Shown here: positions 6,201 to 42,800 of the stretch, in pieces | Layout: every line of letters starts with the position of its first letter | How positions within the stretch are numbered: the stretch's first letter is position 1 | Source of the DNA: Octopus sinensis | Lineage: Eukaryota | Length of the DNA: 64,000 nucleotides | Reading direction: 5' to 3' | Assembly: GCF_006345805.1 (NCBI RefSeq) | Contig: NC_043007.1 | Coordinates: forward strand, 54,870,001-54,934,000 | Notes under the pieces: model-generated | What the model saw: only the letters and a program-made list of their open reading frames with translations | Told to the model about the DNA's origin: nothing | Databases searched by the model: none | Made by a program: the position numbers and the translations under genes

Positions 6201-9200
6201 ACTTAACTGTGATAGTCAACTGACCCTCAACATTTACATAGTCTTCTTCTATATTGTTTTTTTTTTAAATTTAGTTTTTGTCACGATTTGTGAACAATAA
6301 TGTGATTGGCCACAAGTTATGTGGTGATCTCACTAGTGCTGGTGCCAGGAAAAATACAAAGAGTCTAAGATTTCCCCTGACCCACTTCCTAAGGAGTGAG
6401 ATAAATGAAACTTGGCATAATTATTAGTCCTCTACATAGCTACCACAAATGTTGACACACTTCTCCCATCGTTTTAGGCAGCCGTGAAGATCTTGTCTGT
6501 ATAGAAGTCGGTAGACTACATCTTGGAAAGAAGTTCATCATCACCCAAAAAGTGCTTTCTCTTCAAAAAAGACTTGATGGTTGGAAAGAGGTGGAAGTTA
6601 GATGGTGCAAGGTTGGGAGTGTAAGGGGATAAGGTAGGATTTCGTAGCTGTAGGAGTATGCTTTCATCTGTGCAACATACACAATGTGAATTAGGGCTTT
6701 GTCTTGGCAGAGGCTGACTCCTTTGGTCAGTATGCTGGGCATCTCTGCTTTGATGGTGTCCTGCAATTTCTGTGGCAGAGAGGCATAATATGCCCCATAA
6801 ATTGTGGTGCCCTTTGCCAGAAGATCCATCATCATCACTCTGTGCTGGTCCAAAAAGACTGAGCATCACCTTATCTGCTGAGGGTTGGACATGAGCCTTC
6901 TTTGGCAGTGGTGAGTTATCATGCTTCTATTGCTTTGACTGGACTTTAATCTCAAGATCATAGTGATAGATCTGTATTTCATACTGTGTGATAAGTCTGC
7001 TGAAAAAGTCCTCCTCATTTTCTTGGTACATTACCAAAAGAGCCTGGGAGCAATTGACTTGTTCCTGCTTCTGAAAAGGTGTAGCATCTGGGGAATCCAT
7101 CATGCAGCCAACTTCCGCACGTGCAGGTGGTTGTGAATAACCTTTTCCACGGACTTATCTTCACTTCTTGGGCTAATTGCTGAACAGTTTGCAGTGATCT
7201 TCCAAAATGGCAGCTTCCACTTTATGGATGGTGTCATCATCAATGGCAGAATGTGGTTGTCCAGGAATAAGAGCAGTTTCCACTAATGTCCAACCACATT
7301 TGAACTGGCAATGCCACTCCATGACTATGTTGTATGATGATGCATTGTCACCATGAACTTCTTTCATCTCATTGAAAGTCTCTTTTGGTAGATGACCTTT
7401 CAAGTATAAGAACTTGATCACTGATCTGCATTCAACTGCCTCCATTATAGCACCTTAGTTCACTTCAGCAGCTGTAAAAGACAAACGAATACTAGTGGAA
7501 AGCTGAAATTTATAATGTGACATGTAGAGACATGTATGATTATACCTGTACAAGTTCCATTTCCTGCAATAACTGCAAGTGGGTTAGGGGAAATCTTTAA
7601 TGAACACCCCTTGTATATGTAGCACACTCCATAAAGTGCTTGGAGTTAGGAAGTGCAACCATCCGTAGAAACCATGTGAAAACTGATACATTAGAGTGAG
7701 ATATGGTCCTAACATGGATCTTGTTGACCTGTTCAAGCTATGCCAACATGGAAAGCAGACAAAATGATGATGATGATAGCTTCATTTGCATTTGAGTTTC
7801 CTAAAAAGCGATTTATATTTCTCTCTCTCCACAGACAGCTCCCTACTTGAAATACTTTCTCTATATTCATACTCTGTTCTTCCCTTTATTTCCATGGGTC
7901 CTTCCAGTTTCTCCTTCTCTCACTGCTCTTGTTGCACTCACCTACTGCTTTCCCATCCTCTGTCTCTTTTTCTCTCATTCTTCTCTTCCCAGAGCTTTCA
8001 TGTTTTCTTTCGTGTTCCCTTCATACCTTTTCATATAATGTTTTCCCCACCTTCATAACCCACCTTACTACTCTGTTGCTTTCTCATTAACCAATCTCTT
8101 CTCTTTTCCCAATCCCTTTCATAATCCTTCCCTTCACTACCTCTCTTTCACACCTATAAATCTGTTACTGTCATCATCACTTTATCCTCTCTCATTTTCC
8201 CACCTAGAATCATCATACACCCTTGCCTATTCTTCTACAGTTATACAGACCCCCTTTTAGACCCTTAGTCTTGCAAGTTGCATAAAAAAAACACACTCAG
8301 TATACTTTGTGAAGTGGTTGACATTAGGAAGCCATATAAACATTGCTAAAAATCAAACATTGGAGCTTGACACAGTTGTCTGAGGAACTCTTTTACCTTC
8401 CATCAATACAAATAAATCAATAGTAATATTCAAAAAAATCTCACCCTTTACTTAAGCACTAAGTGAATATTTGTAAACACAAAAATACATTTGTTTTTAA
8501 TTATAAACATACAAAATTCACTGAAATAATGAAAATAATAAATTAACGATATTTTATGACCATGATGAGATTTTTAAAATTGGTAACATATTTAATCAGG
8601 TATTTTATATACTTCTCTATTCACAGCTTCGGAAACATCTCCGGGGTCGTCGTTTGGAGGCTGTGCATCAGCTTGGCGTCGACCGAGTTGTTGATTTACA
8701 GTTTGGTTCATCAGAAGCAGCTTATCATGTAATATTAGAGATGTATGATCGTGTAAGGCAATTAGATTTTTTACCTTATTCTTTTACTTAGTTTCTTTGT
8801 TGGCTTTTCATGTAGTCAATTTTGTTTTTTGCTGGCAGGGTTGTCAGTCATGATTTTCAAATTTTCTTTTTTTCTAGGGAAATATTGTTTTAACAGATTA
8901 TAATTATGTTATCTTAAATATTTTGCGCCCTCGGTCCAATGAGAGTGAAGATGTAAAGCTTGTCGTTCGGGAGAGATACCCAGTTAGCAGTGCCAAGCAA
9001 TATGAACCTGTTGAACGTGAAAAGTAAGGCCATCTTTGTTTCCTTACACTATAGACTGCTATTTCTACTTGTGCATTGTTGAATTGATGTGTCATTGATT
9101 AGCTTATAAGAAAAAACAAAAACAAAAAATTACTGTAATATCTTGTAATATGATTGGATTTAGGAGCTGATGATTTCATCAATATGTAGTGATTGAAAGA

Positions 9201-10986
9201 AGTATATAGTGTGGAGTGTTTTCATGTTGCTTATTCGTAATCAGTTGATTCTCCTGCTTCCTTGTGAGTATGAAGTCAATTTTACTTGTGTGTTCACCTG
9301 ATTGAGGGTTGATCAAGTAGTTGGCCAGTATCCTGAAGGTAGTGTTGCAAAAGGTTACATTATTTGCATCACAGAACTGCAGGAATTTCAATAATTATTT
9401 TCTGAACCATATCTATGACCTCTCCATAACATACTGGAGTAGCTATCATGGTATTGCTTAACTTGTCCAACAAAATCCCTGGTCATAATAACCAGATTGC
9501 TGTCATTTATTATTGATATGTTAGGTTGTCAAGAAAGTTTTTGCAGTTTTTAACCTTTAAATTCAGATGCACATATTTCAGCTCAAACAAAACTTTATTA
9601 ATCAAAATAAACACTGTCAGAATCAACACACTTTTGCCAATGCGAAACAAGTTTATTTATGCCAGTAATGTAAAAATCCTATGTTCTGGGGGCGATGAAG
9701 TTGTTGAAGGCGTGTTTGGTATTGTCTTGGTTTTTGAAGCATTTCTTAGACAGGAAGTTATCGAGAAGCTTGAAAAAGTGGTAGTCGGTAGGCGAGAGGT
9801 CTGGTGAGTATGGCGGATGAGGCAGAGTTTTGTAGCCCAATTTGTTCAACTTCTGCAGGGTTACTTGTGTGATGTGTGGCCGAGCGTTGTCATGGAGAAG
9901 AATTGGTCCTTTTCTATTGACCAATGCTGGCTATTGTCAGAGTTTCTTATGCATCTCATCCATTTGCTGACAGTACTCCTCTGCTGTAATGGTTTCACCT
10001 GGATCCAAAAAGCTGTGACGGATAAGACCGGCCGCAGACCACCAAACAATCACCATGACCTTCTTTTAGTGTAACTTTGGCTTCGGGAAGTGCCGTGGAG
10101 CTTCGTCAGCGTCCAACCACTGAGCTGAGCATTGCTGGTTGTTGTAAAGAATCCACTTTTCATTGCAAGTCACAATCCGGTCGAGAAATGGGTTGTTCTT
10201 GTTGTGTAAAAGAAGGAAAGATGACACTTCAAAGCGGTGTTTCTTTTGGTTGTTGTTCAATTCATGTGGCACCCATTTCTAAAGTATTTTTGTTTTTCCA
10301 AACTCTTTCAAGTGGTTGGAAATTGTTGTATATATTACGTCTTATTCAGAAGCAAGCTCTAGAACAGTTGTGTGTGAATTGGCTTCCACTAAGGCTCTTA
10401 GCTGATCATTGTCAACATCTGATGGCTGACCACTACGCTTATCATCTTCAAGACTCTCATCACCGCTACGAAATTTCTTGAACCTGGACCAAATGCATCG
10501 TTGATATCGTGAGCTGTTTCAGAACTTTTCGGCCTAGCTTGAACTGGAATAAGAAAATTGTGTGAATTTGCTTTTTGTCCATGCAATATTCAATGTTCCA
10601 GAAAAAAATGGCCTAATTATTTAAAAAGAAAAAAGAGTAACACGATTAGATAGAGCGAAAAATAGGCTTTAAAATGATATATAAAGTCAAAGTAATTTAA
10701 TGAAAATTAATTTGAAAATACATCATTTAAAACCAAAATTTAAAATTCCGCGAGAACTTTCTTGACAACCTAATAATTTGCACTAGGCCTCACAGAAAAG
10801 GTCCTTTTATCCACTAGTTAGTTTTGATTCAAGGATCACTGTTATCCATGACTAGCCTAAGCTTAATTATTCTGTTACTTCAAGTATCCCACATGGTTGG
10901 TAATTAAGTATCTTTTATTATGGTGTTTGGTTGACCAATGCCTAGTGGATTTGGTTGACAGAAATTGAAAGAAACCTGCTGTTTAC

Positions 10987-11020
<34 letters not shown>

Positions 11021-14000
11021 ATATATTATAGCACCTTGGTTTACTTCAGCATATATATATATTTATATATGCACACACACACACACACACATTTACAGTG
11101 TGTGTATGTGTGTTAATTTATGTCTCCTTGACATCACATGATAGTTGTGGATGAGCCTACTGTCACACAAGCAGTGATGTTTGTTTCCAATGTCCCATAA
11201 AAACATCTGTCTTTGGAGAAATATTACCTTGCTTGAAAACAGGCAACAGTTGGTGACAGAAAAGGCATCCAACCATAGAAAACCTGTTTCAACAAATTCT
11301 GTCTGACCGATGCAAGCACAGAAAAGTGGACATTAAAACAATGATGATGATCATATTTCATGCTTGTGAGGTGTCTGACTGAGGCTTCCAACCATCTTAT
11401 TTTTTGTACACAGAACATATCTAGTTGCCTCATATCAGCACCTCTGCAATCTCTCAAAATTTACCTTTTATTGTGCTAAAACTGCTAGTGGAATCCTTGA
11501 GTTTTATAGCTGTATGTATACATGACAGACTGGATAAACAGAAATTTCAGTCTTCAGATTTCATGTAGTACTGATAATCTGATGTTTTCTCTTTCAGAGT
11601 TAGGGGTGAAATGCATCGTAACAAACATATGCATTCATGTTATATTTGCTAATATATCATTTACATGAACTTAGAGTATAGAAATAAAAGATAGATCACT
11701 CAGTAATCAATAGTAATATTTATTGATTGATTTGCATAATATACCTCACATGGGAAACTCAGAATATAGCAACAAATGAGCAACTAAATTCTTATATATT
11801 ATTAATATTTCAGAATTTACTCGATTCTTAAGGAATCCAAAAATGGGAACCCACTCAAACGGACTCTACTTCCTGCAACTGGTAATTGTTTTTATTTTTT
11901 ACTTCAGTATTGGGACAAATGTAGTTGTAAAATTTCTTGTTCTAACATTGATTCCTAAATTTCTGCATGATAGAATGCCTTTTCAGCATTCTGTGGTGGT
12001 TCCTGACCCGATCAGTACTAGATAGTGTTCCATTTGAAATATTAACAATACTTGTATCCTTCCTTTGTATCAACTCTTATAATATTTTGTCAGAATTACA
12101 CTCATGGCACATGATGTGAATAAAAAATGGTTGTGAAGTTAAGGGTGCAAGATTACTACCTACATAATTTGTAGGCCTCACACATTTAATATCAAGGCAT
12201 GATTTAGCACCATCACTTTGTCTTTGGGTACCTTTAGCAGACTTCACTCTGTTGTGAGTGTTTGGACCAGATCTCTGGTTTTGTACTGTTTTTCTTGCAG
12301 GTGTTCAAGCTGGACATTATCACATCAATCTCACATATCTGAGTCTGAGAAGACCTTCAAGGATTACAAGCACCCTTTACCTTACAAACTTAAAAAAAAA
12401 ATCTCCAAAACATCATTGTTAGCTGAATCATTTCTACTGTAACTACTGGGTTGTGCTCATAATAAAAGTCACATGTATTATCATTAAATGTTTAAGTAAA
12501 GATCCACTCTTTGCTCTGATTGAATAGATAATAGTAAAAGGAACATCCTACAGTAAAATGACTTCTTCAATGTATGCAAATGTTCAAAATGGCTAAAGTC
12601 AACTCATCTATGCTAGCAAATAATTAAATTTAATTTTACCTTAAAAGGACCATAATGCAAGGTATTTATAATGAGTTACAAAACAGTCCAAATGTGAATA
12701 TATGTGTTGTCATAGAAAATTGAGCTAATGTTTAGTCATAAGAAATAATTAATATTTTCAAGCTTAAATAAGTATTTTTATTTATGTGTTATTTCTTTTT
12801 TCTTAACAGATTTTGGTCCTGCTCTTATAGAGCATTGTCTTTTAAGTGCAGGATTTAGTGATGCTGTCAAAATTAATGATGGCTTCCACATAGATACAGG
12901 TGGGTTTATCAATTTATATATAGGTATGTGTGTGTGTGTGTAACCATACCAATATATTGTTATGTTCTACCTCTGTGGACAAAACCTTGTTATACTGGAG
13001 TTTAATTTCGGTTTCAAATTTTGGCACAAGGCCAACAATTTTGGGGGAGGAGCTAAGTCAGTTACATGGACCCCAGTGCTCAACTGGTACTTATTTTATT
13101 GACTCTGAAAGGGATGAAAGGCAAAATTGACCCCCAGCAGAATTTGAAATTAGAACATAAAGATGGATGAAATGCCATTACACATTTTGCCCTTCATGCT
13201 AATGTTTCTGCCAGCTTGCTACCTTGCTTAATTTTGCAGCAATTTAACAATCAGAAATTACTGAAATCTCCCATGACCAGCCCTAGAACTTTCTGCTTAA
13301 ATATAAACTTCCTTATAAAGAACCACCTTGTTACATGCACAAAAGCAAGCAATCAGCCAGTCACTATGATCTGCTTTTGTGTTTTAGTGTGTTTGCTCAT
13401 GCTACATCATATTGTGTACTATTTGTAATTTCTTAAAGTACAGCAGTTAAAATGAAAAACTAAATGAAGTAACTTTTATTTTATGTCATTACCCTTCAGC
13501 ATTCTGATTATTTGTCAAATGTAATGCATATTTGCACATTATTTTGAATTAATCATGCATTATTTTGTAGCTTAGAGATTTCAATGATGTATATTTTTAC
13601 AATTACATTGTAGGGGAAGTATGAGATGCCTGATCTGGCCAGTTTGAACATAAAACTGTTAGAATATTTGGGTCAAATATAGTCATTTAAATAATAAAGG
13701 ATTAAATACCAAACTAAAGATTATAAAACAGAGTAGAAAAAAATCCCCTTCAAAATTAATCAGTCTGACAAGATAAAAGTTACCATGCAAACTTCAAGTG
13801 AGCAGAATATTTCTAAACTAACATGAATACATAGTAAAAAAACCCATTAAAAATAGGGAGAAAATGTTAAGTCTTTGAATAATGCTACTGTCCTTAACAA
13901 TTTCCTAAGCTATTATCCAGCAAATGGCGTTAAATATATTTCAAACAGTTGAAATCAGAAGAAGCTGAGGAAGTCACTCAAAGATTTGTGGTTATTCATG

Positions 14001-26763: not shown

Positions 26764-29700
26764 ATGTGAGATCATGATCAAGAATGAGGACAGAAACAGG
26801 TGTGCTGCTGTAATGGAGATGCATGGTTACCCAGCCAGAGGGAAGGACAAGAGAAAGAGAGAGAGTGTAAGATAACAAGAGTGTAAATGAGAGTAGGAGA
26901 GAGATGGTGGCAAAATGTCAAGGCATACCCACAAGGAATGGGGATCAGAACATAGATGGAATGATAGAGTAAAAGAAGAGAGTGGTAGATGGTGGCAAGT
27001 GCCAGAGCATACACTCAAGGTATGGAGGTCATAATATAAGTGGAAGATATATTGGCAAAAAGTGTGAGTAGGGAGTGGGGGTGGGTAATGCAGTGACTGG
27101 TGAGAATCTGAGTATGTAGAGTGAGTGGAGATAGTAATGATAGTGAGCAGGGCAGTGAGGACAGGATTGGGGAGTGGGAGATAATTATAGTGTATGAAAG
27201 GAAATGTGAGGAAGAGAAGAGATGCAGTTTGGGGGAAGAGATGTAGTTTAGTTTGTTGGAGTAGGGTGTGTGAAAAGTTTTGTTATGTGTGGGTGGAAAT
27301 CACAGTGCTTCTAGTATCCAGTTTCACTGACATGGATGAGTCTTTGCTAGAACTTCATATTGCCAGACATCTCTGTCCATTGTCATTTTCCCTGTGATCC
27401 CCAACATCCTGAGATTGGCCCTCACCACTTCACCCCATGTCTTCCTGGGTCTCCCTCTTCCACAGGTACCATCCACTTTAAGTGACTGGCACTTCTTCAT
27501 ACTGCTGTCCTCATTCATATGCATCACATGTCCAAACCAACATAGTCTTCTCTCTTGCATGCTGCATTTGATTCCTCTTATAGCCAACTTTTCTCTCAAC
27601 TCATTTGTGCTTTGTTGTTCATGCACACTGATGTTACACATCCAGTGGAGCATAAAAAGAATATAAGACTCATCTGCTATTTGCAAAGTGGTTATGCAGA
27701 AAATGCAGAAACAGATTACGCATATGGTAAACTATAGTGCACAAAAGATGTAATAGAATCATAGGCAGGCCGACAGAGAAGAATTTTTTATGTAGCAGAT
27801 ATACTGAAATAGTTACCAGAAAGGGCAATTATTAAATGAATTTCTTCAAATATCTGGAAGTTTCTTTAGAAGTAGCTGACTGCTTCTGTTAACATATGTG
27901 ACCGAATTGACAATGAAAGTGAGTTTCTGTAGCCAGAGGAAGAACAGTGTGGAAAACTTTTATAGAACTGTTAACTCTGTTGGCAACAAAAGGACTTCCC
28001 TTTGTGTGAAGGGCAGACTGAATGGTGCTTGTGTGATATTGTGTGGCATCATTGCATAGGTATTGAATACAGAGCCTGTGAGTGAGCTGGAAAAAATTAG
28101 GTGAGCACATTCTACTGGATGTATAATGGTAGTATGAATAAATTTTGGAGCACAAATGATCTGAGAGAAAAACCGGGTATAGGGAGAAATGACTGTAGAG
28201 TGTAAGAGAAGAGACTGCACAGGTATGGATATGTGATGCATATAGAGAATGGCAGGTAAGTGCTAAGGGATCTGAGTGGAAGAAGAGAACATAGAGAGAA
28301 ATGGTGAAAGCAGTCTTAGGATGCTGAACTTCACAGTGGGGATGACAAGGGACCGCAACAAGATGCTGTGCTGCAGAAGAGCAATATAACTTATGCAAGC
28401 AAGGAAAAAACTGACAAAATGTTTAAATAATCTATCTAAAAGGTTTATATAATTTACATAAAAGATTAACATCAACTCTGTAAAAGATTTAATGCATGTA
28501 AAAAAATTCTAACATGCAATTTTCATATTTTGTTTTTCTCTTACAAAATAATTTCTTTGTTTATTTTTGTTAAGTTAGTGTTTTGTTTCTTTTCTTTTTT
28601 TATAGGCTGTTGATGAATTTTTTTCTAAATTAGAAACCCAAAAGTTAGATATGAAGATATTACAGCAGGTAATTCATATTTCAAACCAGAGGATTTTTTC
28701 ATGAATCTTACAAATGATTTTCCAAAATTATTAATTTTTTAATTGTTAATATTAGATCAAAAAGTTTATTGATTTTGAATTAGGTTTCCTACCATATTAT
28801 AATATCATTTTCCTTATTTTGTAATATCTTGACCAAATCATGAATTAAACTTTAATTTATTGCTTCAGGAAAAAATTGCAGTGAAAAAATTGGAAAATGT
28901 GAAAAAGGATCACGAAAAAAGGATGCAAGAATTACAAAAAGTCCAGGTATATATTTTGTTCTAAATTGTCTCGTCTTCAATTTAGCAGAAAACCACTGTC
29001 TTAGAAATTGCAGGCAATATGAGGAATGGATTAGGAATGTACTACTGATGCATATTGTGTGTTAAAATACTATGAGTTGATGGTGAAGAGTTGCTATTAC
29101 AAACTGAGGGAAACATAGAGAGAAGTTGTTTGAACAGAGTATGACAGGAGTTAGAGTGAATTGTGTAAATTCAATTAATGAGAAATGAAGAAACAAGTGT
29201 TAAAATGATGAGGATGATAATTACAATGATTATAGTGTTTTCTAGCTTTCACATGCAAGAAACTCAGCTGCTGTTTGGAACTATGCAAATAAGTGCTGGC
29301 TTAAGGTATATCAACGATACTGGGTGTGGGTAGATACTTTATTTGATTTGCAGACATCCAAAGTTACAGATTTAAATTATTAAATGAATGGAATAATAGC
29401 TTATTTGCCAATTATTGTTAATTTTTTTGTGTCAGAGGGTCAATTAATGAAGGAGTTTAGAAATTATATCTATGTGGTGTTGCACACTCATTTTCATCAT
29501 TTGACATTTATGTACACACACTCACACACACACACACATAAAGTAAAGATTATTTGCCAACATAATGTAGCAGTCCCGGATGGGACGAATGTTACTGTTG
29601 TTTAGCCCCAGGAAATGTTGTTTCCAGCTGACTATACAACACAATATCTGTATCCTTATATTATCGAACAGGGGCTAAACAACAGTAACATTCATCCCAT

Positions 29701-32700
29701 CCAGGACTGCCACTTTATGTTGGCAAATAGTTTTTACTTTAAAGTACTCTTACTGAATACCTCTTTTTGAGAGATTTAGAAAGAATAATGTTTATATATA
29801 TATTGTTACGAACCTGCCGTCGCTCAACTCGAACTCGGGACCCTACTAAGTCGAGCGACGACGACTACCACGCTCAGTCAAATCGGAAATCCACCACAGA
29901 AAACGGTGGTGGGGATGGCAGCGAACACAGACCGGAGACAACAACAACAACAACAGGAAGAGAGAGACAGCGGAAGGCAGTTGCTTACATTTAACAACAG
30001 TTTATACAATTTTTATAACGTCAAATAAAACGTAATACATATCAGATACATTTAAAGAAAAACATCTAACAGATTGTACAGAGTTAAAAGAAAAACAATC
30101 AATGCATTTAAACGTAACACAACGTCCAAAAACAATCAAAACAAATGTTCAACACAATACAGAGTTCGAAAACAGTCCACATTAAAGTCTTTCTCTTCTC
30201 TTCAACAATTCTTTTTACATTTCAATAGATTACAGTTTATGTCACAATGTTCTTTTCCCTTCTTTTTCCTTCTCTTTTTACAGTTCTTTTGATACAATGT
30301 TCTTTTTCCTTTTTTTCTGACACAGTTCACAAGTTCTTTTCTCTTTTCTTTTAACGCACATCACCATCCAAAATTCGACAACAAAAACATAAACAAACAT
30401 TACCACACGTTCTGAGTCTGCAACAATTTCAGCTCCTACTACAACACGGCCTTCTCGCCATAATCTCCCTCACTTCCTCTCGCTTGACAAATCCTCAATC
30501 CCCTGTGTCTGTCTTTCTCGCCATCACAACCGACTCTGCATTGACCCTCACGCCAACTGACTATCAAACCCCCAGCTTGCCGCATTTTAAAGGGTGGTAG
30601 ATTTATTTTTTTCTTAAACTTTCCCTGACTGTAGGGATCAAAAAATGTCACTTCCTAACACATTAATTTTCCCTACAGATGACAGGACAAAGTGCCATAA
30701 CTTCTTTCGCCAGTCCATCTGGCACTAAACCAACGAAACTGGGTCATAACACTTTTTCTTCAACTGACCTTGTATCAATATATATATATATATATATTAG
30801 CAGAGACACCCAGCGTTACCTGGGAATGAAATTGTTCATAATATATTGGAAGAAAAACGCAAAATATGTTGTCTAGAAATTTGTTATTCTAAATTCAATT
30901 TATTCTTTAATTGGGAAATCAATTCTGAATTCATAATACAAAAAAAAACAAAAAAACTACAAAATTTGCCACTTTTATGAAGAGAGATAAATTCTATCAC
31001 ATATGATGAAGTAAATTACGTATCCATCTTGGCTAAATACATAGATTAATAGATACTGGAGTGCATCATATGATTGGTGGGCGACATTTATCTGTTGAAT
31101 TTTATTTCCTCTTCTTTGAATAATATTTCTCTTCCTCGTCGCCTGTAATAATTACTGCTACTTCATTTGTAGCTGGCACATTGTAGCAGTCTCTGTGCTC
31201 AGAAATAGGCTTTTTGTTTGCATCAATAACTATCTTGTATTCAGCGGGTGGTGCAGATTCCAGTACATACTTGAAGCTTCTGATGTAGCTATTATTTGCA
31301 TGCAACATAACTTGCAGATCAAAGATTAACTCTTCTTTCAAATTAGGAAGGTTAAGTGACCATTGCAAAGCCTGCTCCTTGTAATTTGCCACAAAATATA
31401 GCTGTAAAAATTGAGGATTGTTGCCTTCAGATGGCAACAAAGATCCAATACAATGATATACTTGACCTTGAACTTTGCTATCAAAGGAGGTCATTTGGAA
31501 AGCAGAATTATAATTCCTAATGTTTTTCAAGAAGTGCATGCTCGTTGGTGTGTTTCCCAAAAGCAATGCCTTCAAAGTATCTGTGGGTGTATCCAATGTC
31601 CGTAAAACAACTGTTCCTCCATCGCAACACATAGTGGTGGTTTCGCTTTCCCATTTCTTTCCTTTACAAAAACTGCACCCCTTGACACTGCTCTAATATC
31701 AATCAATTTCTCTGTAGGATAATCATGTTTTGGATCATAGTTGGAAGCTGATCTTTTCCAAGTTTCCTTAAAATGTGCAATTCTTGATGAAAATGTTTAC
31801 ATCTTTCCTCTGAGGATTGGTGAAGTCTTGCAGCAACTGTTTACTCCTGGTTTTTCCTTTGTCTCATCTCTTGCTGATCTATTGTCTCATTCCCAACTCT
31901 GGCAGCTTGTCTATGTCTTGCATCCTTTAAACGTTTTCTCTTTTTTGACTCTTGGCTCCTGCGGATTGCATTTTGTTGACATAATTGTTCTAATCATTTT
32001 ATCTTTGCCTCTTGTGTCTTATTAGCCCTCTTGTGCAGCAGCTCTCCTTTGGTAATTTTCATGTCTTTGCTGTTGTTGTGCAGGAGTCTCTAGTGACCTT
32101 ACTGTGGCTATCTGTACTTATCTTTGCTTCACTGTAGAATACTGATCCTCTACATCTACCCTGTCTCCTCTTGTGGAGAGTGAGAACATTTTTCTTGGAA
32201 ACATTTTTGAAAATTAAAATGGTGATTAAATGAAAAAATGAGTGAAAGTTATGTGAATATTTTCATAAGAGTGATTGAAAAAATGGCGATTGTGGCCGCC
32301 ACATGTACATGCGCACACACATACACATCATACATGCAGTATCAAACATCAGCGTCTCTCTCTCTCACTTTCCCCCTCTCTTCGTGCTGGCTTTCTTTCA
32401 ATTCACCTATAGAATATACATACAGTATTAAACATCAGTGTCTCTCTCTCTCATGCTATCCCACTTTCTTTCAACTTTTCCTATAGAAACTGGTTTTCTC
32501 TCTGTTTCTTTCTCTCTTCTCTCTATCTTTTTCTCATTCTGTATACATAGTATATGCTTACACATAGTCTCTCTTGCCCTCTGAAATAGTTCCTGTCTTT
32601 TAGTCTATGCTTGTTTCCTTCACTCTCTCTCTTTCTAATTCACTCACACACTTACACTATTTACATTTCTCCCCCTATCGAAGAACGTTGTGACGAATGC

Positions 32701-35493
32701 GAAGATTGAGGAGGAGAAGTAAAGAGCCACTTCCTCATTTTGCTTCTCTGTTTCTTTCTCTCCCCTCTCATTCACTCATTGGCATTATGCACAGACATAC
32801 AAATACACAGACATTTGCTAATATATATATATATATATATATATAATTAATTAATAAGGGTGAGAGAATTAGATACTAATTTAATAGTATATCTATTCAA
32901 CACCAAGTGGCCTAGTGCTCCGAGAAACCTGGATTATTATAATATTTTATAATATATTACAATATTTTTACAAAATAAATATAAGAGAGTGGTCACTATA
33001 TGGCTCACTCTAGCACCAGTTAATCCAAAAGGTTTCAACCACAAAAATACATGTTTCCCATGAAAGTCAGTACGATTGTTAGCTCACACGGACAGGGCAA
33101 ATAAAAAATAACAAAAATACAGATTATTTTGGGACAATTGTTTCGCTATTAATGAATTAAATGTAATTTTACTTACAAAAAAATCCACTTGTAGCTCGTC
33201 AGCCAAAACTATCTGGATGAAATCCACTCAATCACACGCCAGATTTTACCATAACGATAAATACGCGTGTGGTTCAATTGATTACATCCGACGTTATAAT
33301 TCAAATGCCCCAACTAACAGCGCGCCAAACTTTCACGGAAAACAAATACAGCATTTAGAAATAAATGCAGCATAATTATAATTAATTAATAAGGGTGAGA
33401 GAATTAGCTAATTTAATAGTATATCTATTCAACACCAAGTGGCCTAGTGCTCCGAGAAACCTGGATTATTATAATATTTTATAATATATTACAATATTTT
33501 TACAAAATAAATATAAGAGAGTGGTCACTATATGGCTCACTCTAGCACCAGTTAATCCAAAAGGTTTCAACCACAAAAATACATGTTTCCCATGAAAGTC
33601 AGTACGATTGTTAGCTCAAAATCTGGCGTGTGATTGAGTGGATTTCATCCAGATAGTTTTGGCTGACGAGCTACAAGTGGATTTTTTTGTAAGTAAAATT
33701 ACATTTAATTCATTAATAGCGAAACAATTGTCCCAAAATAATCTGTATTTTTGTTATTTTTTATTTGCCCTGTCCGTATGAGCTAACAATCGTACTGACT
33801 TTCATGGGAAACATGTTTTTTGTGGTTGAAACCTTTTGGATTAACTGGTGCTAGAGTGAGCCATATAGTGACCACTCTCTTATATTTATTTTGTAAAAAT
33901 ATTGTAATATATTATAAAATATTATAATAATCCAGGTTTCTCGGAGCACTAGGCCACTTGGTGTTGAATAGATATACTATTAAATTAGTATCTAATTCTC
34001 TCACCCTTATTAATTAATTATAATTATGCTGCATTTATTTCTAAATGCTGTATTTGTTTTCCGTGAAAGTTTGGCGCGCTGTTAGTTGGGGCATTTGAAT
34101 TATAACGTCGGATGTAATCAATTGAACCACACGCGTATTTATCGTTATGGTAAAATCTGGCGTGTGATTGAGTGGATTTCATCCAGATAGTTTTGGCTGA
34201 CGAGCTACAAGTGGATTTTTTTGTAAGTAAAATTACATTTAATTCATTAATAGCGAAACAATTGTCCCAAAATAATCTGTATTTTTGTTATTTTTTATTT
34301 GCCCTGTCCGTGTGAGCTAACAATCGTACTGACTTTCATGGGAAACATGTATTTTTGTGGTTGAAACCTTTTGGATTAACTGGTGCTAGAGTGAGCCATA
34401 TAGTGACCACTCTCTTATATTATTTTGTAAAAATATTGTAATATATTATAAAATATTATAATAATCCAGGTTTCTCGGAGCACTAGGCCACTTGGTGTTG
34501 AATAGATATACTATTAAATTAGTATCTAATTCTCTCACCCTTATTAATTAATTATAATTATGCTGCATTTATTTCTAAATGCTGTATTTGTTTTCCGTGA
34601 AAGTTTGGCGCGCTGTTAGTTGGGGCATTTGAATTATAACGTCGGATGTAATCAATTGAACCACACGCGTATTTATCGTTATGGTAAAATCTGGCGTGTG
34701 ATTGAGTGGATTTCATCCAGATAGTTTTGGCTGACGAGCTACAAGTGGATTTTTTTGTAAGTAAAATTACATTTAATTCATTAATAGCGAAACAATTGTC
34801 CCAAAATAATCTGTATTTTTGTTATTTTTTATTTGCCCTGTCCGTGTGAGCTAACAATCGTACTGACTTTCATGGGAAACATGTATTTTTGTGGTTGAAA
34901 CCTTTTGGATTAACTGGTGCTAGAGTGAGCCATATAGTGACCACTCTCTTATATTTATTTTGTAAAAATATTGTAATATATTATAAAATATTATAATAAT
35001 CCAGGTTTCTCGGAGCACTAGGCCACTTGGTGTTGAATAGATATACTATTAAATTAGTATCTAATTCTCTCACCCTTATTAATTAATTATAATTATGCTG
35101 CATTTATTTCTAAATGCTGTATTTGTTTTCCGTGAAAGTTTGGCGCGCTGTTAGTTGGGGCATTTGAATTATAACGTCGGATGTAATAATCAATTGAACC
35201 ACACGCGTATTTATCGTTATGGTAAAATCTGGCGTGTGATTGAGTGGATTTCATCCAGATAGTTTTGGCTGACGAGCTACAAGTGGATTTTTTTGTAAGT
35301 AAAATTACATTTAATTCATTAATAGCGAAACAATTGTCCCAAAATAATCTGTATTTTTGTTTTTTTATTTGCCCTGTCCGTGTGAGCTAACAATCGTACT
35401 GACTTTCATGGGAAACATGTATTTTGTGGTTGAAACCTTTTGGATTAACTGGTGCTAGAGTGAGCCATATAGTGACCACTCTCTTATATTTAT

Positions 35494-35533
<40 letters not shown>

Positions 35534-35888
35534 CACATTCACATACACAGTAATCCCTCAACTATTGCTGGTGTTACGTTCCAGAACCTCCCATGACAGG
35601 TGAAAATCTGTGAAGTAGAAACAGTACTGTACCGTATATTTTTATTATTTTTATAATTTGTATATATTTTATTATAAATGCAAAACAACACCATGGAGGC
35701 ATCAATGTAAGCTTAAATAATAAACGGCAATAGGTGAACTGTAATATGGCAAGGGATTACTGTATATATGTATGTATGTGTATATATATATATATATATA
35801 TAAAATATTATATAATATTTACTATAAAATTGGATTTAATCCTAATCTGATTTTTTTCCCTGTAAATTTGGATATATTCCCTAATATT

Positions 35889-35922
<34 letters not shown>

Positions 35923-36849
35923 AAATGGCAGACCTCAAAAAAATAGTGGTCTATGGCAGCAAATATCAGTTCAAATAGAGCTAACAAAATATTGTTAAAG
36001 CATTGTGAAAAGGAGAGAATTCTAAGATTTTGAGCAAGGAAGAAGAATATGCTCCAAATGTTTCAATTCTTTAACATTATATTTAAAGAAACATCATCAC
36101 ATTACCTGTTAAGATTTGTAGAATTATTGATTTCTTAAAGTTTCTTTTCATCAATAATTGTCTTATTAAAAATTAACTTTCAATTTCAGGAGTTGGATAC
36201 TTTAAAAGGTCAGTTTATTGAATACAATCTAACATTGGTAAGTGATTAATTTTGTAATTACTTAGTAAATACGCTTGTGAAAGTCAATAGTATACATTTG
36301 TTGTTCTTGTGTTGGATTGACATAACCATAACTCATGCTTGAAGCAGAGAGAGTAGTTCATTAAATGACTGAAAGAATATTTAAATCCATGATAAAACAT
36401 GCTAGGCTTTTATTAGTCACTCCACTAAGTGGCCAGACTTTGCCAGTATATATATATATATATATATCATTATCATCATCATTGTTTTAATATTTACTTT
36501 TTCATGTTTGCATGGGATGGACAGAGTTTGTTGAGGTGGATTTTCTATGGCTGGATGCCCTGCCCGTTGCTAATCCTCACCTGCTTCCAAGTAAGGTAAT
36601 ATGTCCCCATGACCAAACATAGAAATGAAGGACACCATTTGCATTACGGTATCACTTACAACTAACACATTATGTCAAGGCAAAAGGACAGTAACACACA
36701 CACAATTTTAGTTTCCATCTAACAAATCCACTTACAAGGCTTTGGTTGGTCTGTGACTATAGTAGAAGACACTTACCTAAGGTACCACACACTAGTATTG
36801 AACCCTGAACTATGAGGTTGGGAAGTAAACTTCTCATCATACACCCCTG

Positions 36850-36886
<37 letters not shown>

Positions 36887-39800
36887 GAGGGACGTTCAAT
36901 AAGTAATGCCCCTGACCCACTTGCAATTGTTTGATCTAGCTGAAATATTGCATGTGCAATTATTTGTATCTCTATAGATTAAGTGGCAAATTACAGCTCT
37001 AAACTAATTGTGGTTTCTGATTTACAGGTGTTTGAACTGAGTCAAGTGTGAAATGGAGCCTGTTGAGTGTCGAGCAGTGATCCGGGTTTTGTATTTGAAA
37101 GGACGCACACCACGGGAGACTTTTGTTGAAATGAAAGTAACTTATGGTGATGATGCCCCATCATATGACCTTGTAAAATGTTGGCATCGTGAATTCAGAC
37201 ATGGTCAGAACTCTGTGGAAACAGCTCCCAGATCTGGTTGCCCTACTTCTGCCATTGATGAGGCATCTGTCCGTCAAGTTGAGGCTGCCATTTTGGAAGA
37301 TCGACTCATGACTATTCGCCAAATAGCCCATGAGGTCAAGATTAGTACCGGGTCTGTGGAAACTATCATTCATGACCATTTGCATATGCAAAAGGTATCT
37401 GCCAGATGGATTCCCAGGTTGCTCACACCTTTCCAGAAGCAAGAACGCGTCGAGTGCTCGAGGATGAATTTGGAGATGTGCCAAGAAGATGAGTCAAGAT
37501 TTTTCAAAAGACTGATTACACAGGATGAAACCTGGGTCCATCACTATGATCCAGAGACCAAAGTCCAGTCAATGCAGTGGAAGCACCGTGACTCACCTCC
37601 TCCAAAGAAGGCAAGGGTGCAGCCCTCCGCTGGCAAGGTCATGCTCACAGTCTTCTGGGACCAGGACGGAGTAGTGATGACAGATTTCCTGGCAAAGGGT
37701 ACCACAATTACAGGAGCCTATTATACTTCACTTTTGAGGAAATCAAGAGAAGCTATCAAAATCAAGAGGCGGGGCAAGATCAGCAAAGGTATTCTCCTCC
37801 TGCAGGACATCGCTCCGGTCCACAACTCGCGTGTCGCCAGATCAGAAGCACAGGCGTGCGGTTATGAACTCCTCCCCCATCCTGACCTTGCACCCTCTGA
37901 TTTTCACTTCTTCCCAGCCATGAAGCTGTTTTTGAAAGGAAAGCGTTTCCCAGATGATGCAGCCTTGATTTCTGAAGTCACGTCGTGGTTGGAGGACCAA
38001 GCTGGGGTCTTCTACAAAAACGGTCTTCAGAGCTGCATCAAACGATGGGAGAAATGCGTAACTCTGGGTAGTTCCTATGTAGAAAAAGACTAATAACTGT
38101 GCCAAGTTTCGTTGCTCTACTGCTATGGGAAGTGGGTCAGGAGCATTACTTATTGAACGCCCCTCGTATATATATGTCCCTCTTGCATTTCTTGAGGCTC
38201 TTCTTTTCCTCTGCGGCCTTCAAGAGCTTCTCCATCCGGTATGCCTCAAAGTCTTTCTTTAGTTGCTGACGAATCACTCTGCTGAGAATGGAATATTCAA
38301 GATGATCTTCAATAGTCCTCTTCATATTTTTCCTCTTCTCGAGTAACTTCGTAGTTTCTTCCGAGATTCTTCCCTTCTTTTCTCTTGGGCATACACCCTT
38401 AGCCTTCCTTAAACACTCCTTCAGTTTCCCTATCAGTGAGTTGTAGTCATCATCTATGTCGCCTCCTTGGCACCAGTCTTCCTGCATGATGGCTTCCTGC
38501 ATGATGGCTTCCTGCAGCTTTGTCTCGTAGACTCGGACACGTTTTCCCTTCGACGCCAAATATAACGCAATCTTCTCCCTCTTCTCGTCGATGACGACCC
38601 TCGCCCTTACCAGACGATGATCACTGCCGGTGTTGAATGGCGTCACGACGGAGACGTCATGCAATATGCGTTGCTTATTAACCAGGATGTAGTCGATCTC
38701 GCTTCGGTGCTTAGAGTTTGGCGATATTCAAGTCCATCTCTTCCTCTCCCTCTTCCTGAATAGGCTGTTTCCGATGTAGAGCTGCCTCGCCTCTGCCATG
38801 GTAGCCAAACGTTCTCCTCTCTCGTTTCTCTCTCCCATGCCAAATCTCCCGATGTATTCCTCTCCTTGTCGTCCATGTCCAACCTTTGCATTGAAGTCTC
38901 CCATCACGACAGTGTAAGTGGACTTCATAGCCAACCCTTTGTCTAGTTGTCGATAGAATTCTTCCACCTCGTTGTTGTCGCTGGAACTTGTGGGAGCATA
39001 GGTCTGGACAATCTTGAGGGTGGCCTTCCCTGAGAGGTTCACATTTAGTACACCAATCTGTGATGATATGAAGTGGCAAGAAGCGACCCTCGAAGCCCAT
39101 TCCTTACTTACGATGAATCTGATACCTCCGACCGATCTAGCACCTTCTGCTCTTCCTAATCTCACAATGCAATCATCTTACCACCGTATACTCGCTTCCT
39201 TCTTCCAGCGTGTCTCGCACAGCCCTAACATGTCACACCTGATCTTCTTCCTCTCCTCCATTAGGTGGTTCAGTTCTTGCCACCCTGCCATAGACCTGCA
39301 GTTGTAGGTGCATATGGCAAGTTTAGTCCTGTTCCATGACGGCTTTCGGGAACCTGTGATTCTTAGCAGCCTCTCGTCGCTCGAGTTGCACTCCGCCGTC
39401 ATGGAGTGGCCCGATTGACGTGCAGGGTACTGAGGCCCTTTTCCTTTTCTCTTTGTTCTTCGTGCTGTTTTAGCCATAAGATGACGCCATCCCACTGGCT
39501 GGGCGGGCAGGCCGGTATTTTGTTGGATGGCCGTTGACTCTTCAGGAGTTCATCCGCCCTTTGTTGGGTCTTATTTTTCCATCCCACAGGGAGTTCAACA
39601 GCACCCTCCTCACCAAGCGAACCTGGTGGGGTTGTCAGTTTAGTCGCTGACGTCCCGACCATGCAACAGGTTGTACTGGATTACATGTTACCAGTAGCAC
39701 TCTGGAGCGACCTGACATATGCAAGAAATGCACGAGGGACATGGTACTATATAGATCGGAGGTGACGGCCCTGAAAAATACAGATGGAATACCAGTCAAC

Positions 39801-42800
39801 GAGAAGAGCGAGATGGAAAAAATTTGTGAAGACTTCTACACCAAGCTCTTTAAGTCTACCAGAAATGTCCAGCCGTTACCACCACTCCAACAGGAAGAAA
39901 ACGTGCCACCTATCCTTGTCAGTGAGGTTGAAAGAGCCATCAGCTTGATGAAAAACGGAAAGGCTCCAGGGAAAGACGGTATAACATTGGAGGTGCTAAA
40001 GTCAGGCAGAGAGCAGCTCTGGAAAATCCTTGCTGAGCGATTTATGCACTATCTAGACGAGGGAAGAATTCCCTCGCAGTGGAAAGAGTCAAATACCATC
40101 CTGCTGTATAACAAGGGCGACAGAGAAGATCTAAAGAACTACCGACCCATATGCCTGCTGTCTCACGTGTACAAGCTGTTCACGAAGATAATTCTGAACA
40201 GGTTGTCACGTCGTCTCGACGAACAACAACCGAGGGAGCAAGCAGGCTTCCGGAAGAACTACAGCACAATGGACCATATATTTGCTCTAACGCAACTGCT
40301 TGAGCGAGCAAATGAGTACAAGCTGCCTCTTTGCGTTGCGTTTATAGATTATGAGAAGGCCTTCGATAGAATCGAAACCAACGCAGTGCTGAACTCGCTG
40401 CAGAGGCAAGGAATCGAAGCGAAATATGTGCAGCTGCTCAGAGAGGCAAATTCCGGATGCATCACCGACATAGCTCTACTGTCATCACCCATACGAGTGC
40501 CGGTCGAGAAGGGAGTGAAACAAGGAGATACAATCTCTCCCAAACTTTTCACTGCATGTCTTGAACAGATCATCAGAGGCATCGAATGGCAAGGTGGTGT
40601 CAACATCAATGGCGAGCTCCTCCCTCACCTCCGTTTCGCTGACGACATCGTACTCATCACTGAAAACATGGATCAGCTTCAGACCATGCTGACGGAGCTC
40701 GACATCAAAAGTTCTGCAGTAGGTTTCAAGATGAAAACAAAGTTCATGCGGTCAGACAACGTACCAACAGATCAAATGGTGATCGGCAGTGATGAAATAG
40801 AGGAGGTGAGAGAATATGTCTACCTGGGACAGGAAGTAAATATGTGCCGGGATATCAAAAAGGAGATCTCACGGAGAGTAAGGGCCGGATGGAAGGCATT
40901 CAATGGCATAAGGGATGTGCTCAAGGGAAGGTTGGACAGGACCACCCGCGCCAACCTCATTAACAGTGCAGTTCTACCTGCAATGTTATATGGTAGTGAA
41001 ACATGGGCTACCACAAAGAGAGAAGAGCAAAGACTGATAACGGCTCAAAGAGCCATGGAAAGGTCAATGCTTGGTATCTTGTTGAGAGAGCACATAAATA
41101 GCAACATCATCAGAAAGAAGTCTGCCGTGAGAGATGTCATCGCAGAGTATACTCGCAGCAAGTATAGATGGGCTGGACACGTCGCCCGGCTCACCGATAA
41201 TCGGTGGACGCACGCAGTTGTCAAGTGGTACCCGCGTGAGCGGAAAAGACCACCCGGAAGACCTCCACGACGGTGGAGTGACGATTTCAAGAGGACAATT
41301 GGGATCACGTGGATGAGAAAGGTGCGATCCAGAGAGGAGTGGACAGCGTGCTGTGACCAGCGGTGTCAAATGGACGCCTGACGGACTGGTCAGTCAAAGT
41401 GATCAAAGTGATATATATATATCATTGTGTTGACCAGACTATCAGATGTTCTTCACAATGCGCTTCCTTGCATTATTTTAGCTTTCAAATGATGGAATGA
41501 TGTCACCCTGGTGATTAGGTGGGCAGGCCAAGTTTTTCCCCCCATGTACAGAATGTCAATCCATTGTAGACTCATTTATAGCTGAGTGAAATGAAGTATT
41601 TTGCTCAAGAACACAATGTGCCATAGATCTAGAAATTGAAACCACAATCTTGCAACTGTGAGTTCAACACTCTGACAACTAGGTTGTGAGCCTTCACTCA
41701 CACCCACCCGCACACATGCACGCACACCTGTATGACCCCTGAAAGTCATAGTCATAGACCCATTCAGGAGCAATGGACAATGATGCTTTACCATTTTTGT
41801 GACTTATCAATATCTGCACACAAGTGTTGTAAACATTATCAGACACACATACACTATGTATGTTCTTTGATTGTTTGCTAGTCAGCTGTGATTTGACCCA
41901 GAGGAGATGACTCTCTCATCTCACCTCTATGTTTACAACATTCACACTGCTTGATTTTATTTCTACATATGCTTTGTTTAGGCATACTAGCAGATGGTTT
42001 TTACACTATCTTACATATAGTCATAGACAGGCTATCCAATTTGCCTCTGGTTCGGTTCAAGTATGTGATGTTGATAAGCTACAAAGATGGTGAAACATCG
42101 ATGTCCATCAGTCCTGAATAGGACTCGGAATGAGTTGTCTCACTCTTCTATGGCTATGACTTTCAGGTGATTTAACACCCTTTGCTTTGAGAGAGTTATC
42201 TCCTCCACTTCAATTTGCAGCCGACTGGCAAACAAACGAAGCACATACATTGTGTGTTTGATAATGTTTACAACACTTGTGCTGCTTCTAATTTATAATT
42301 GAATGTACACACACACACACACACACATACACACACGTCTGCTTCAGTAAACTCTGTCCAACCTATGCAAGCATGGTAAAGTGGATGTTAAAATGATGAT
42401 GGTGATGATGATGATAACTGGCATGGCATCAGTTATGATGATGCATGATCCTGATGATCTGATCAATGGAAATCCTGCTTGTGAAATTAACATACAAGTG
42501 GCTGAGCACATACAAGTAGACATGCATACCTTTAATGTAGTTCTCACAAGAAAATTCAGCATGACACACAATGTGACAAGGCTGGCCCTTTGAATTACAG
42601 TACAGCTCATTTTTGCCATCTGAGTGAATTGGAATAATGTGGAATAAGTGTCTTGCTCAAGGACTCAATGTGCCACCAGGATTCAAATTCTAGACCTTAC
42701 AGTTGTTTGCCAAATACTGATTGAAGTTTGCTTTCAATTTAAAAATTTTAAAACATTTTTACTGATAACATCCAGTTGTCTATTTTTGATATGAATTTTT

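Follow-up and report, generated by a model that had tools for sequence, protein, structure and literature searches.

Non-LTR retrozymes were defined by Cervera and de la Pena (2020; PMC7229834), who gave unit lengths of 170-400 nt for animals, showed circles in coral, mussel and axolotl, and named Penelope-like elements as candidate helpers. More recently, retrozymes were linked to the pLTRs of Penelope-like elements by co-occurrence and similarity, with families of 51-972 bp, and local tandem amplification was proposed as the origin of retrozyme arrays (Li, Clavereau and Pollet, bioRxiv 10.64898/2026.07.22.740005). The available text of both studies leaves open which enzyme spreads retrozymes, and whether rolling-circle reverse transcription or subsequent tandem amplification produces the arrays. 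A Penelope-like protein has been studied in vitro: it cuts AT-rich DNA on both strands and extends both, and its reverse transcriptase (RT) starts at two internal sites of the RNA, the stretch between which corresponds to the genomic "tail" (PMC11167929). Inverted genomic copies of Penelope elements have a head-to-head order with a 30-40-bp tail at one end (PMC8557442, PMC3846280).

Here, we describe an array of repeats from Octopus sinensis that lies in a window of 64,000 nt (NCBI RefSeq assembly GCF_006345805.1, contig NC_043007.1, forward strand, positions 54,870,001 to 54,934,000). The unit of this array is a non-LTR retrozyme and, thus, of a kind already known. Like the metazoan non-LTR retrozymes, it consists of tandem non-coding units, at least two in a row and each with a canonical type I hammerhead ribozyme, has a GC content below 50% (32%), is predicted to form a highly self-paired circle in which the ribozyme is free to fold, and co-occurs with Penelope-like elements. 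Unlike the retrozymes of 2020, its unit is 534-535 nt rather than 170-400 nt long (PMC7229834). This length was taken as a sign of novelty in the preliminary description, which was made from the sequence alone, but it falls within the 51-972 bp of the later survey (bioRxiv 10.64898/2026.07.22.740005). What sets the unit apart from the retrozymes described in the available text of these two sources is that its copies can be inverted head to head, have two fixed ends and target (TA)n. The features of the array are collected in Table 1; unit positions are counted from the base after the predicted cut, with 33733-34266 as the reference monomer.

Table 1. Array features and flanking NEMF exons, in window coordinates
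Feature	Position	Strand	Basis
Left (TA)n target tract	32821..32841	.	TRF row 32821-32845 and flank
Inverted arm, 777 nt, with the outer (3') end at unit position 290 and the inner one at ~47	32842..33618	-	Self-BLAST, exact end calling (L070)
Tail of 130 nt (unit positions 161-290), bounded by the fixed ends; at this insertion end only	32842..32971	-	
Type I hammerhead, minus-strand copy, predicted cut at 33133	33127..33208	-	
Tandem arm, 1,879 nt; runs from unit position 420 through three whole units to position 160	33618..35496	+ (sense to NEMF)	
Type I hammerhead 1, predicted cut after 33732	33657..33738	+	
Type I hammerhead 2, predicted cut after 34266	34191..34272	+	
Type I hammerhead 3, predicted cut after 34800	34725..34806	+	
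Type I hammerhead 4, predicted cut after 35338	35263..35344	+	
Cut-to-cut monomer, 534 nt, predicted self-paired circle	33733..34266	+	Circular MFE against shuffles
Second monomer, 534 nt	34267..34800	+	
Third monomer, 538 nt	34801..35338	+	
Right (TA)n target tract	35497..35533	.	TRF row 35485-35533
NEMF exon 5' of the host intron	28866..28946	+	tblastn with NEMF protein; donor GT at 28947
NEMF exon 3' of the host intron	36190..36237	+	tblastn with NEMF protein; acceptor and donor read

The array had been read as a simple tandem of units inside a NEMF intron. Its boundaries at 32842 and 35496 were confirmed by exact end calling; the plus-strand cut sites with their spacing of 534, 534 and 538 nt were confirmed as well. 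The tandem structure did not hold: the part up to 33618 is an inverted arm, and the array is made of two arms that lie head to head and point apart, with (TA)n on both sides. Similarly, all five hammerhead motifs reported as identical do agree letter for letter, but only four of them share the plus strand, the fifth being a minus-strand copy. Most of the mechanistic information lies in two features overlooked in the initial reading, namely the inversion and the pair of fixed ends. No more than one substitution and four gap positions distinguish units within the window. The assignment of the intron to NEMF was borne out: an NFACT_N search returned a single exon of 44 residues, below cut-off, which led to the Octopus vulgaris NEMF protein (95% identity), and this protein aligns to the window in 22 exon blocks, by which the array falls into intron 28947-36189 and its long arm is on the strand of the gene. 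In other words, four sense ribozymes lie in an intron of a housekeeping gene. Over the array, the only open reading frames are stop-to-stop frames of 87-97 aa that are antisense to the ribozyme, and no matches to Penelope proteins were found in the window.

The hammerhead motif, TTTTGG-CTGACGA-GCTA[43 nt]TAGC-GAAAC-AATT-GTC^CCAAAA, is not a chance occurrence. Its exact pattern has 984 matches genome-wide and none in the reversed control, while variants at core position 7 add 699 matches, again with none in reversed controls. Stems I and II with the extensions originally proposed were found as described. Among 17 hammerheads compared, the core is invariant and seven of 24 pairs are changed on both sides, and the hammerheads are predicted to self-cleave. 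In the Rfam search called for in the preliminary description, no family reached its gathering score in the window, and at E<=10 the hammerhead model gave no match on 34100-34700, where only three chance-level rows of non-hammerhead families were returned. We attribute this miss to the 43-nt insert in stem II. The unit is an example of a hammerhead class that escapes Rfam. The extended stem II had also been regarded as a ground for novelty; instead, it is common to local Penelope-like elements of the Hydra clade and to other Penelope loci. Palindromic stem III and dimer cleavage have been described (PMC4209133). Stem III of the unit consists of two pairs plus a tetraloop, which is typical of invertebrates (PMC7229834), and an obligatory dimer for cleavage is therefore not established. 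Hammerhead-like motifs with a palindromic stem III also lie near Penelope loci at L107:7021, L107:7416, L116:851 and L074:2621, three of the four with a long stem II.

The unit belongs to a dispersed family. In a search of the 2.7-Gb genome, the best 40 of 758 candidates gave at least 233 matches on many contigs, with whole units at 92-100% identity. On contig C1, the 90 exact hammerhead matches form 32 clusters, and extrapolation from the 984 matches gives ~350 loci genome-wide. Among the core-position-7 variants are subfamilies of 89-99% identity and others of 70-80%, whose unit is ~505 nt long, as well as an unrelated protein-coding family. Nearly all insertion sites are in (TA)n. Because of this, target-site duplications are hidden at the loci read, except at L069:3590-4575, a single-orientation insertion with little TA flank and a duplication of ~10-11 bp. 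No LTR arrangement was seen among the loci read. The longest arrays have 14-17 units (L052, with 14, and L056). These dispersed near-identical copies with an intact type I hammerhead support the early reading of the unit as a young, non-coding, retrozyme-type retroelement. Literature searches outside subscription papers, Repbase and Dfam returned no report of a cephalopod retrozyme; the family may already be catalogued in Repbase, Dfam or preprint supplements. At unit positions ~161-185 (window 34427-34450), an internal AT-rich duplication of ~20 nt forms a hairpin, and it accounts for the longer tail of the young subfamily compared to the older ones.

The predicted fold of the unit is conserved. 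As a circle, the monomer has a minimum free energy of -150.5 kcal/mol compared to -105.2 +/- 6.5 kcal/mol in 60 shuffles (z -6.9; none as low), and in this fold hammerhead stems I and II form with a probability of ~1. Across ten units, 15 of 128 pairs have changes in both bases, and pairing is kept in 98.5% of cells as opposed to ~40% with slid partners. Because these ten sequences are related, representing essentially two subfamilies, and the structure was derived from the same sequences, the covariation is support rather than proof.

Since the family is young, the footprint of insertion is still preserved. Ends were read at 41 loci, among them that of the window (L070); after removal of two duplicates (L059, identical to L058, and L064, identical to L053), 39 independent loci remained, and L116, identical to L105, was outside the 41 (the 40 loci are the best scorers for the whole unit, not a random draw). 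Sixteen of the 39 have a single orientation, with the outer end at position 290 in 11 and at 160 in five, and 23 are inverted. At 22 of the 23 inverted loci, position 160 forms one outer end and position 290 the opposite one (19 by the motif rule, and L034, L049 and L056 by end calls and BLAST), and in none are the two ends alike. Under independent choice, 22 mixed loci out of 22 have a probability of at most 2.4e-7. At the exception, L036 (L036:4369-4562), the ends are at 160 and at 500, the latter with 22 foreign letters. Inverted loci of the subfamilies follow the same rule wherever both ends could be classified (8/8), including the diverged subfamily, in which the two ends are ~105 nt apart; at four more, only one end was classified. 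Thus, the tail between the fixed ends is 105-130 nt long. On C1, 16 of the 32 clusters have the order minus-then-plus and none plus-then-minus. By contrast to the fixed outer ends, the inner ends are scattered around the unit, and one of 62, counted from the loci read, is within 5 nt of the cut.

Several other explanations of this pattern were considered. Copying by fold-back as the cause of the inversion is excluded because either arm can be the longer one. Priming by simple TATA matching was rejected because the unit has eight TATA sites while only two ends are used; three single-orientation loci do start at 287-291, where TATA matches the target. Microhomology at the inner junctions was unconvincing, with at least 3 nt in five of 22 compared to 7% expected and a mean of 1.1 versus 0.8 nt, and three inner junctions have extra or unresolved bases. 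In L1 twin priming, both target ends prime and a head-to-head inversion results, as we propose for the unit. Unlike in L1, the unit's start sites are both fixed and internal, and either arm may be the longer one and may exceed one unit. With the pLTR and tail of Penelope elements, the unit shares the inverted copies, the extension at one end, the two RT starts 3' of the hammerhead and the AT-rich targets (PMC11167929, PMC8557442, PMC3846280). It differs in having no ORF, a tail of 105-130 rather than 30-40 nt, and many head-to-tail repeats. No tail or inversion footprint in retrozymes was found in our literature searches, which covered sources other than subscription papers, Repbase and Dfam. 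Among the loci read, we also noted a nested three-part insertion (L062:3196-4796), an array of 14 units whose 5' end borders on non-TA sequence close to a Hydra-like fragment in the opposite orientation (L052:107-1375), three pairs of loci that share the same insertion and flanks and represent duplicated segments or redundant assembly (L053/L064, L058/L059 and L105/L116), and an insertion present twice in tandem (L053).

The footprint also bears on how arrays arise. The array could be a minisatellite that grew by unequal crossing-over from one pLTR-like insertion, following the local amplification route of the preprint (bioRxiv 10.64898/2026.07.22.740005), or it could be an assembly artefact; the uneven identity between the units of L056, which goes down to 92%, could reflect local amplification or read errors, and the copy number at the window locus comes from the assembly. 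Against both speak the hundreds of loci dispersed through the genome, whose outer ends are fixed, whose inner ends are random and among which inversions occur, and the contigs of four independent sequencing runs, which contain the unit and one of which bridges its end to its start. We, therefore, regard this explanation as extremely unlikely, and as a general origin of the family it is already largely refuted. Instead, the footprint favours arrays that arise during insertion itself, copied from a template that does not end at the cut site. The inner ends ignore this site, as expected for a circular template, while a cut linear template would end there.

This genome contains at least two large Penelope-like groups. 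The first, family A, was obtained by a GIY-YIG search (best 150 of 5,029 candidates) and has intact RT-endonuclease frames of 781 aa at 97-99% identity. Its copies are young, with an upstream open stretch and (TA)n ends (L103-L106, L116). A CxxxxCxxC linker and a CCHH motif, as we read the translations, suggest that it is Neptune-like. Its tail is ~31 nt long and runs into the element's 5' end; by the descriptor used, it is without a canonical hammerhead, and it has no sequence in common with the unit. Given this tail and the lack of shared sequence, family A was rejected as parent or helper. The retrozyme array beside L105/L116 was likewise rejected as a part of family A, since it lies ~700 nt past the end of the element in a separate TA tract.

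The second group, family D, was first reached through the hammerhead pattern (L151, C1:78090000-78098000). An RT search gave 11,807 candidates, and many of the best 140 that were scored have frames over 700 aa. The marks of the Hydra clade are a CxCX5C linker, DKT, the lack of CCHH and (TA)n ends (PMC8557442). Family D has the CxCX5C linker before a C-terminal GIY-YIG domain (L151, L163, L165, L167; the domain at E 6.4e-4, below the Pfam cut-off), DKT in place of DKG (in one copy, the 5'-truncated L168), and (TA)n ends together with a canonical hammerhead. By eye, its translations have no CCHH but CxxC and CxH beside conserved E and N. By these marks, family D would belong to the Hydra clade. 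Asparagine-rich (AAT)n inserts are present between RT and endonuclease (L151, L163-L168). While few families of this clade have been described outside cnidarians in the available text of PMC8557442, its elements are very abundant in this genome.

The Hydra-clade family resembles the unit in several respects. Its hammerheads have the same build, in which the stem II region spans 45-60 nt and stem III is palindromic, and its ends are in (TA)n (L151, L155, L157, L158, L163, L164, L167, L058). In L163 and L164, stem III is changed on both sides with the palindrome retained, which hints at a dimeric stem. At the eight 3' ends with hammerhead that were read among the 11,807 candidates, the element ends ~40-45 and 137-158 nt after the cut, giving a tail of 97-115 nt, and all four inverted loci (L151, L158, L155, L157) have one short and one long end. 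Based on the common hammerhead build, the (TA)n target and the length of the tail, we consider it reasonably likely that the Hydra clade is the helper of the retrozyme, and the genome thus offers a candidate helper with long open frames. The link to Penelope-like elements drawn in the preliminary description is supported. The two also differ in that the Hydra family encodes RT and endonuclease and in the positions of the ends, which are ~40/137-158 nt compared to 160/265-290 in the unit; the first Hydra end at 40-45 nt, as opposed to 160, counts against this helper. Also against it, no significant likeness was found outside the hammerhead between the unit and the Hydra 3' ends examined, and the ends read are few. 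Homology of the tails was rejected, as none of 20 pairwise alignments exceeded shuffles (21 of 300 were as high as the best), and so was that of the whole unit with the 3' end of L151 (score 56; shuffles up to 66).

A related explanation is that the unit is the pLTR of an unsampled autonomous Penelope-like family, and the arrays are its 5'-truncated partial tandems. Tail, inversion, TA target and hammerhead are all features of pLTRs, a match to known elements, almost all of them Penelope pLTRs, exists for 24 of 57 retrozyme families of Xenopus (bioRxiv 10.64898/2026.07.22.740005), and the sampling of Penelope loci here is small. Still, we regard it as very unlikely. None of the loci examined, a part of the genome's copies, joins the unit to an RT or GIY-YIG frame, and the nearby Penelope fragments are set off by TA or other DNA; therefore, the unit is not shown to be a pLTR. 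Moreover, as many as 17 units follow each other head to tail, with every position included, and the subfamily with 20-30% divergence has the same circular permutation. No parent with the same pLTR as the unit was found among the Penelope loci sampled. Two candidate chimeras of retrozyme and Penelope ORF, L065 and L052, turned out not to be continuous. At L058 (Hydra) and at L068 and L105 (family A), a retrozyme lies in or just past the (TA)n that follows a Penelope 3' end, and the two kinds of element thus share targets.

Based on these data, we suggest that the unit is probably a non-LTR retrozyme of the non-autonomous type, for which a Penelope-like element, most likely one from the Hydra clade, supplies the copying machinery in trans. 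In this model, transcripts through an array, e.g. the NEMF pre-mRNA, would be cut by the hammerheads into monomers of 534-535 nt, which a host ligase would close into self-paired circles. Judging from the footprint, the GIY-YIG endonuclease of the helper would open a (TA)n tract, and its RT would start inside the RNA at position 160 or 290 after the cut. Both positions are just behind a hairpin and a UUAU run. The RT would then roll around the circle across the ribozyme junction and stop at random, giving rise to arrays of arbitrary length. Where both target ends are primed, one cDNA would start at 160 and the other at 290, and the two would be joined head to head; while the pattern of ends is observed, this cause is one that we infer. 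More speculatively, a dimer of the Hydra-clade RT/endonuclease may bind a single circle of retrozyme RNA at two sites separated by 105-130 nt, one site for each opened (TA)n end, with both RTs rolling around the circle. The array would thus be written at insertion, and the rule of one short and one long end would reflect an asymmetric, coupled two-ended priming step of Penelope transposition. As part of this tentative scheme, some octopus tissues may also contain the RNA in large amounts, and it may cleave NEMF pre-mRNA where it is sense in the intron. In general, the footprint suggests a tie between the retrozyme and Penelope-type two-site priming by a named candidate clade. It predicts that copying starts at 160 on one target end and at 290 on the other, with read-through of the junction, and for such predictions an in vitro assay with a Penelope-like protein already exists (PMC11167929).

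The same retrozyme and class of helper could also operate on a different template, namely the uncut linear transcript of a multimeric array, with the hammerhead being slow or helper-dependent and circles a by-product or absent. For the Penelope-like protein in vitro, the template is mainly RNA that has not been cut, and the hammerhead can be dispensed with and is assisted by the protein (PMC11167929), most of the frog retrozyme dimers tested were uncleaved (eight of nine, with one active; bioRxiv 10.64898/2026.07.22.740005), and an RT could cross the cut site on a linear multimer too. We consider a linear template unlikely, because the core of the hammerhead is invariant across 17 sequences while its stems are changed on both sides, conserved long-range helices enclose the ribozyme, and the arrays of 14-17 units (L052, L056) would require very long uncut transcripts. 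We, therefore, favor the circular template.

Most words of the unit are present in sequencing runs of five organism codes and seven studies, with no listed run recorded as RNA. The contigs of four of the 21 listed runs were compared with the window at 28550-33376, and all four runs cover the unit. In run X7, a contig skips the NEMF intron 28665-28866 at GT..AG, and this run, therefore, contains spliced RNA. Its spliced contig has a depth of 8.2, the bins of the unit add up to 6,851-11,826, and most of those in the intron are at 0, although contig depth cannot rank expression. In run X1, which is without cover of NEMF exons, a 565-nt contig goes from 33314 around the unit end to 33285 and is as long as expected of a closed cycle of 535 nt; the same contig would also arise from tandem DNA or from a multimer. 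Thus, the X7 and X1 contigs are weak hints of expression and of a circle, respectively. Among the loose contig ends listed, none leads toward an ORF.

Further mobile elements are present in the window. In the next NEMF intron, an uninterrupted frame of 350 aa at 37041-38093 (+) looks like a mariner-type transposase. Endonuclease-like frames at 38146-39549 (minus) and an RT-like frame of 576 aa at 39651-41381 (plus) presumably are LINE-like pieces of an internally inverted copy (38146-41381). Finally, NEMF introns contain fragments at 31102-31692 (-) and 27324-27731 (-), which resemble a Helitron Rep-helicase and the 3' end of a LINE, respectively.
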